This document shows positions 3,912-3,957 of a stretch of 4,367 nucleotides of DNA, in pieces (the first letter of the stretch is position 1; the number at the start of each line of letters is the position of its first letter). The stretch lies in IMG/VR virus record IMGVR_UViG_2671180435_000008. The stretch is one strand, 5' to 3'. A program made the position numbers and the translations under genes. The DNA comes from a virus (taxonomy: Duplodnaviria > Heunggongvirae > Uroviricota > Caudoviricetes). The notes beneath the pieces were generated by a model. The model was given only the letters and a program-made list of their open reading frames with translations. It did not search any database and had not been told where the DNA came from.

Positions 3912-3916
3912 ACTGT

Positions 3917-3920
3917 CTCC
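3917..3920 (-). promoter_or_regulatory. Shine-Dalgarno (GGAG) for the DNA circulation gene
   Basis: Minus-strand sequence ATAGTGGAGACAGT precedes the ATG, putting GGAG 5 nt upstream of the start codon at 3911-3909. Confidence 0.55.
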
Positions 3921-3923
3921 ACT

Positions 3924-3950
3924 ATAAAAAAACCGCCAATTTCTGGCGGC
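3924..3950 (-). terminator. Rho-independent terminator downstream of the AT-rich ORF
   Basis: Minus strand reads GCCGCCAGAAATTGGCGGTTTTTTTAT: a 6-bp GC-rich stem (CCGCCA/TGGCGG, 3933-3938 pairing with 3944-3949), a 5-nt loop and a run of 7 T (plus-strand A tract 3926-3932). It sits 8 nt after the TAA stop of the AT-rich ORF and about 12 nt before the N start. Confidence 0.65.
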
Positions 3951-3957
3951 TTATATA

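Follow-up and report, generated by a model that had tools for sequence, protein, structure and literature searches.

Genes and features of the locus

We analysed a stretch of 4,367 nucleotides (the window), in which all genes lie on the minus strand. Read from right to left, they are an AT-rich open reading frame (ORF), which we refer to as the cassette gene, followed by a short gap, N, P, gp45, gp46 and the start of gp47. Pfam domains were assigned on loci identical to the window genes, and each feature is listed below with the evidence for it.

1-31, no strand assigned: IS1 terminal inverted repeat (left copy, in gp47); 97-100% match to IS1 ends in phage records; window edge
32-515, minus strand: 5' part of the baseplate J/gp47 gene; PF04865 (Baseplate_J) in Shigella loci L007-L009; truncated by IS1 and lacking 107 bp
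508-918, minus strand: gp46 baseplate gene; PF07409 (GP46)
924-1457, minus strand: gp45, baseplate assembly protein V; PF06890 (Phage_Mu_Gp45)
1435-2523, minus strand: P, gp44-like baseplate hub gene; PF21683, PF22255, PF22630 and PF21929
2520-3911, minus strand: N, DNA circulation gene, intact; PF07157 (DNA_circ_N)
3917-3920, minus strand: Shine-Dalgarno GGAG of N, 5 nt ahead of the ATG, as read from the sequence
3926-3952, minus strand: predicted intrinsic terminator of the cassette; motif scan and folding
3958-4339, minus strand: 3' 382 nt of the cassette gene (residues about 35-160 and stop); 99% identical to WP_000594909.1
4331-4339, no strand assigned: one 9-bp copy of the IS1 target-site duplication (CGTTAAAAC on the minus strand); L006/L001 comparison
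4340-4367, no strand assigned: IS1 terminal inverted repeat (right copy, in the cassette gene); L006 comparison; window edge

The intergenic gap is 46 bp long (3912-3957) and extends from the stop codon of the upstream ORF (3960..3958) to N, which runs from 3911. GC content is 0.376 over 3912-4339 versus 0.545 over 31-3911, and the ORF list contains no tape-measure coding sequence within the window. At the DNA level, N is 96% identical to phiP27 L48. An identical, inward-facing IS1 terminal repeat forms each end of the window; the two IS1 copies thus lie in opposite orientations.

We also observed several differences within the baseplate genes. A (CCAGCA)n repeat in P at 1953-1975 encodes (LV)n, with the frame kept in all copies; the copy number is one in phiP27 and E. 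coli, two in L007, three in the window and five in L012. The C-terminus of P (1435-1480), after KKK and an A-run, reads as a longer MLRRISDERVFSS in all Shigella copies, as against NVEEDF. From the sequence, this looks like a 1-nt frameshift, with the P/gp45 overlap then being 23 nt. In gp47, 107 bp near 91-93 are absent from the window and present in L006 (13822-13928), E. coli and phiP27. The junction of this deletion has an ATC microhomology, and the gp47 reading frame is shifted.

The AT-rich ORF as listed (3958..4353) is a partial gene, with its first codons inside the IS1 end (4340-4367). We rejected a complete 131-aa gene from the TTG at 4353, as this start codon lies within the IS1 end. 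Compared with full-length relatives, the cassette gene in the window has lost its first 33-34 codons, the insertion point being codon 34-37, and IS1 has cut off the promoter region, ribosome-binding site, start codon and signal peptide. Judged by what remains of it, the gene is inactivated in the window.

The tail operon on either side of the IS1 copies

We performed an exact look-up of the window N protein, which defined a set of eight Shigella genomes (L006-L013). Seven of the eight loci (L006-L011 and L013) have the same order: sheath, tube, TAC, tape measure, the 5' end of the cassette gene, IS1, the cassette remainder, the terminator and N, and beyond N they continue with P, gp45, gp46, gp47', IS1, the gp47 C-terminus, gp48, tail fibres and smpB. 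Ahead of sheath, these seven loci have bamD followed by IS elements and a prohead-protease fragment. The eighth locus (L012) has both the cassette gene and the first IS1 replaced by an IS5-type element (326-aa transposase) at 8657-10000, and its homology to the window ends at 3925. With the IS1 copies and cassette set aside, we found the Mu-type order of tape measure (TMP), DNA_circ_N, GpP, Gp45, GP46, Baseplate_J and Gp48 across L006-L013.

We then compared the window with L006 (9545-14021), to which it is 100% identical aside from the 107-bp gap. The right IS1 corresponds to L006 8805-9572 (768 bp), with the 9-bp direct duplication CGTTAAAAC on either side; this target is single-copy in the uninterrupted locus of E. 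coli FDAARGOS_944 (L001). The left IS1 corresponds to L006 13992-14759 (768 bp) and has the target duplication GGGGGCGCAG. Both copies have the features of a simple IS1 insertion, namely a length of 768 bp, terminal inverted repeats and a target duplication of the 8-10-bp class, and the tape-measure gene ends approximately 180 bp past the right IS1. These junctions indicate that both IS1 copies are simple transpositions into a collinear tail operon. The same comparison places the window between two IS1 copies of a decaying phiP27-like Shigella prophage. Its shape is explained by short-read assemblies breaking at IS1: more than 3000 public contigs, 2-5 kb in length, contain the exact N protein. 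The Shigella prophage is without head and regulatory genes and has two IS1 insertions; given a decayed prophage and a beheaded cassette gene, nothing in the window is likely to be functional.

The sequence-only reading had proposed a break in synteny upstream of N, possibly with the baseplate block separated from the rest of the tail operon. In a true break, N-P-45-46-47 would have been moved by IS1-mediated transposition or inversion, and the AT-rich DNA would be unrelated chromosomal or foreign sequence. Such a move would fit the two inverted IS1 copies that bound the window in the manner of a composite transposon, as well as a window without the tape-measure gene. However, both IS1 target duplications are intact and the same genes resume outside them, and the AT-rich gene lies uninterrupted between TMP and N in E. 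coli. In the surrounding genome, we found TMP, TAC, tube and sheath immediately on the far side of the right IS1, and these genes are directly upstream in all eight genomes examined. The tape-measure gene is therefore present, and all that stands between the baseplate block and the tail operon is a 768-bp IS1 with its 9-bp duplication, in an order collinear with phiP27. For the genomes examined, this refutes a true synteny break, which we consider extremely improbable.

The cassette region has been interrupted in more than one way. In Shigella flexneri SFBU1023 (L004 10001-11300), the tape-measure gene is followed by an intact cassette gene; there, IS1 interrupts N after nucleotide 31 and the baseplate genes are gone. 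As read from the junctions in the window, L004 and L012, the 600-bp cassette region has been struck by at least three different IS events.

Presence, absence and recurrence of the insert

To describe the insert, we compared the window with relatives that have or lack it. phiP27 matches the window at 96.4% over 31-3915, where the match ends, and its tape-measure stop lies 15 bp ahead of the N ATG, as it does in E. coli RMDEC465. E. coli FDAARGOS_944 matches at 98.8%, with the match reaching 4339, and has the order TMP, 67 bp, a 160-codon gene (WP_000594909.1), hairpin and N. When sequences with and without the insert are aligned, phiP27 homology is lost 13 nt before the TMP stop and comes back only at the N ATG, so the GGAG ribosome-binding site of N comes from the insert. 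GC content is 0.368 in the cassette, versus 0.521 in TMP and 0.547 in N. Some lineages may have gained the cassette, or phiP27 may have lost it.

Prevalence was assessed in a sample of 5426 complete E. coli genomes, 50 of which have the phiP27-type N gene. The close form of the cassette (approximately 600 bp at the TMP/N junction) was found in 11 of the 50 genomes with this N gene, FDAARGOS_944 and ten others, and a variant cassette with approximately 66% DNA identity was found in 101 of the 5426 (about 2%), including ETEC H10407. In vB_EcoM-720R4, ETEC H10407 and E. coli C3, the TMP/N slot is occupied by this variant (50% protein identity). A Yersinia enterocolitica prophage (L014) has a 74% version of the cassette directly upstream of N, and gene calling gave no tape-measure gene in the 1.5 kb that separate its tube gene from the cassette. 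Among 50,697 phage records, a single one has a homologue.

Two of these records have peculiarities of their own. At L014 5976-6001, an out-of-frame ATG upstream of the cassette gene appears to encode MKKPIYL; the Yersinia signal peptide is probably frameshifted or mis-called in the assembly. In FDAARGOS_944 (L001 5496-7137 and surroundings), the prophage with the intact cassette adjoins a frameshifted ipaH (T3SS effector) gene, which suggests that this “E. coli” record has a Shigella- or EIEC-like background.

A small AT-rich gene plus terminator before N is thus carried by related genomes (the deposited phage genome vB_EcoM-720R4, ETEC H10407, E. coli C3 and FDAARGOS_944), which argues for a recurrent accessory cassette and not a synteny break. 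Where the upstream gene is annotated in cassette-bearing relatives, it is the tape measure, and the Yersinia prophage likewise has the cassette followed by N. The sequence-only reading had itself named such an arrangement, with the tape-measure gene just past the right IS1, as refuting its proposal, and it is what the comparisons showed. The other option in the sequence-only reading, a terminator-bearing insert inside the operon, is borne out by these comparisons, as the cassette sits between TMP and N. The pattern of occurrence indicates that, in enterobacterial prophages, an accessory cassette has repeatedly landed at the TMP/N junction of Mu-type tail modules.

The hairpin between the cassette gene and N

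We folded the gap region and scanned the window for terminator-like motifs. The minus strand contains a hairpin, AAGCCGCCA-GAAAT-UGGCGGUUU (RNA loop GAAAU), at 3952..3930, with a GC core at 3933-3937/3945-3949 (CCGCC/GGCGG, 5 GC pairs), a stem of 9-10 bp and a loop of 3-5 nt. It runs into a tract of seven U (3932..3926). The layout is that of an intrinsic terminator in silico, with a GC-rich stem-loop followed by a U-tract on the transcribed strand. A sub-threshold Rfam match to RcsR1 over the terminator (24 bits versus 60, E = 0.08) was set aside as chance. The sequence-only reading had reported this hairpin at 3924-3950; the hairpin itself is there, and its coordinates were off by a few bases (3926-3952). 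Its description of N as preceded by a strong terminator and AT-rich DNA, with no tape measure in the window, was confirmed (gap 3912-3957, z = -4.63, GC 0.376).

A hairpin and T-run were also found just past the stop codon of every examined cassette upstream of N (Yersinia, 720R4 and H10407), followed in each case by a ribosome-binding site and then N. The stems differ among versions (CCGCC/GGCGG, CCGCG/CGCGG, GGAGC/GCUCC and GGGGC/GCCCC) while their position is kept, which argues for selection on structure. The hairpin could instead be a chance or non-terminator structure without a transcriptional role, such as a recombination site or an RNA-stability element. Consistent with chance, terminator-like sites are not in excess across the window (7 found versus 4.7 +/- 2.5 expected). 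However, the gap hairpin is the sole site in the window with 10 pairs and a 7-T run, its canonical GC stem leads directly into U7, and the 76-nt region folds at -22.6 kcal/mol, with 0 of 200 shuffles as stable. The five independent cassette versions, each with a differing stem and T-run after the stop codon, likewise speak against chance, and we regard a chance or non-terminator structure as very unlikely.

The cassette protein

The full-length cassette protein is 160 aa long and matches phrog_5586 (unknown function) end to end (E = 1e-88). We found no match at E <= 1 for this protein in Pfam, NCBIfam or PADLOC, only noise in a Pfam scan of all 13 family members, and nothing below E = 0.1 in a profile search against PDB sequences. 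A literature search on the cassette protein accessions, phrog_5586 and phage 720R4 also found nothing. Across 1.8 billion representatives, a profile search gave only 19 relatives; weak profile matches to giant cadherin-like repeat proteins were judged compositional and rejected.

The full-length relatives that we retrieved are approximately 150 residues long and have Sec signal peptides ending AxA/K and two conserved cysteines. We compared these signal peptides with the lipobox pattern [LVI][ASTVI][GAS]C at the signal-peptide end with a basic N-region (PROSITE PS51257 type). LTS/C at residue 15 together with K3 fits a lipobox in the E. coli/Shigella clade. Most relatives are without a Cys there and have AxA/K signal-peptidase-I sites at the lipobox-aligned position. 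From the sequence motif, the Shigella/E. coli protein may be a lipoprotein, or alternatively a soluble periplasmic protein with an AQA/K site, like most relatives. AlphaFold reached a pLDDT of 85.4 with 13 diverse sequences (40.8 with 8 close sequences), and the protein, which has an N-terminal signal peptide, is predicted to form a helix, then an eight-stranded beta-barrel.

Distant relatives (25-28% identity) were found in L015, L016 and L017, which are phage-plasmid-like contigs, in accessory regions and not in tail operons. These contigs contain an IncFII RepA, ParA, MazEF or HigBA-like pairs, a CI/S24 repressor and a RecA-dependent nuclease, and L015 and L017 have an AT-rich upstream element, TTATTTAAATAAATATTTAAT, in common. 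Two of the three phage-plasmid copies are followed by a hairpin and T-run, and the third by a hairpin with no clear T-run. Such distant copies suggest that the cassette gene travels as a self-contained accessory unit and not as a tail part.

They bear on a further explanation, in which the AT-rich gene encodes a tail or baseplate assembly or structural part and the hairpin is an internal attenuator setting the ratio of tube and tape measure to baseplate. This would be consistent with the gene keeping its TMP/N position in two phage lineages and immediately preceding N in the Yersinia prophage. It would also fit the promoter scans: a strict sigma-70 scan of the 67-bp cassette leader gave no hits and a relaxed scan gave weak candidates only (3-4/6 hexamer matches, e.g., TTGTGG-15-AATTAT), as expected of co-transcription with the late operon. 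On the other hand, phiP27 lacks the gene, as do most prophages whose baseplate genes are 95-96% identical, its GC content is 17 points under that of its neighbours, and its homologues are as rare among phage records as described above. A Sec or lipoprotein signal peptide is unexpected in a tail component that is assembled in the cytoplasm, and the distant homologues sit beside partition, toxin-antitoxin and repressor genes. We therefore consider a tail part very unlikely.

A probable interrupted moron at the TMP/N junction

A moron is extra DNA that relatives lack, that deviates in GC content and that carries a promoter and a terminator of its own; HK97 gene 15, the founding example, is situated within the tail operon beside the tape-measure gene (PMC3594210). 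Three such features were found here: presence or absence at a precise site among relatives, deviant base composition and a predicted downstream terminator. The leader scans gave no convincing promoter, which counts against the moron reading, since morons are defined in part by autonomous expression. On balance, we think it very probable that the AT-rich DNA ahead of N represents the 3' portion of an IS1-cut moron at the TMP/N junction of a phiP27-like prophage.

Sequence comparison shows that the cassette, in approximately 600 bp, consists of a 67-bp leader, the gene encoding the 160-residue exported protein, a predicted intrinsic terminator and a ribosome-binding site that is new to N. In the Shigella lineage, one IS1 entered the cassette gene and a second one gp47. 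In intact lysogens, the cassette gene would probably be transcribed on its own from the repressed prophage, and the transcript would stop at the hairpin such that the baseplate genes stay silent. During lytic growth, late transcription modified by Q would continue past the hairpin and leave tail assembly unaffected.

The proposed read-through bears on the suggestion in the sequence-only reading that a terminator in this position would attenuate transcription into the baseplate genes. In lambda, Q-modified polymerase ignores intrinsic terminators. In phiP27 and 720R4 alike, a Q antiterminator gene precedes a block of late genes that lies on one strand, so attenuation of N-P-45-46-47 by the terminator in lytic growth appears unlikely. 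In this genome, the question is moot, since the prophage has neither head nor regulatory genes and has been hit twice by IS1.

We infer that the exported protein is most likely a lysogenic-conversion factor whose place of action is the periplasm or the outer membrane. Our favoured guess, at low confidence, is that it excludes superinfecting phages, or that it binds and inhibits an envelope-acting protein. More specifically, phrog_5586 and its relatives might be an unrecognised periplasmic or outer-membrane-anchored conversion family that shields lysogens from contractile-tail phages, an idea that we find conceivable though rather doubtful. The protein would then bind something that passes through the periplasm during injection, for example the tape measure, a tail lysin or the DNA-circulation protein. 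If shielding is true, the repeated siting of the gene beside the tape-measure gene would parallel HK97 gp15.

The direct consequence of these results is small, in that an apparent anomaly is removed. Of modest value are the recurrent TMP/N slot and an uncharacterised family of exported, predicted beta-barrel proteins. The cassette also offers a clean natural case of a strong predicted intrinsic terminator in a late operon set against Q antitermination.

Comparison with known systems

The closest known relative of the tail genes is the phiP27 tail module (L44-L53), in which N, P, gp45, gp46 and gp47 are collinear with the window and 96.4% identical at the DNA level. phiP27 is without the cassette, whereas the Shigella copy has the cassette, two IS1 copies, the 107-bp gp47 deletion and the changes in P.

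For the cassette protein, likenesses to known proteins are more general. The lysozyme inhibitors PliC, MliC and PhiA and the T6SS immunity protein BtaiB are small periplasmic beta-barrels that resemble it at the fold level only (7-11% identity), and it had no sequence match to the PliC/MliC family profiles (Pfam and PDB sequences). Among the PADLOC families of known anti-phage defence, none matched at E <= 1. Envelope proteins encoded in or beside the late operons of lambdoid phages include lambda bor and lom and phi80/N15 cor, with roles at the envelope of the lysogen in serum resistance, adhesion or receptor blocking. As with the cassette, their products are exported or lipoproteins encoded in or beside the tail genes of temperate coliphages. 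However, the cassette protein has no Pfam match to them at E <= 1, and genome position and predicted fold differ.

The nearest parallel is HK97 gene 15, a moron reportedly described by Juhala et al. in 2000 and by Cumby et al. in 2012. The two proteins are unrelated in sequence: gp15 is YebO-like and sits in the inner membrane, whereas the cassette encodes a 160-aa protein predicted to be a secreted or lipid-anchored beta-barrel. Gene 15 occupies the slot between the chaperone and tape-measure genes of a siphovirus tail, and the cassette that between TMP and N of a contractile Mu-type tail. A promoter, expression from the prophage and an exclusion phenotype are established for gp15, and the corresponding properties of the cassette are putative. 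Nonetheless, each is a single small gene of deviant composition placed between conserved tail genes beside the tape measure, missing from close relatives, followed by its own terminator (predicted for the cassette) and encoding an envelope-targeted product, and HK97, like phiP27 and 720R4, controls its late genes by Q antitermination.
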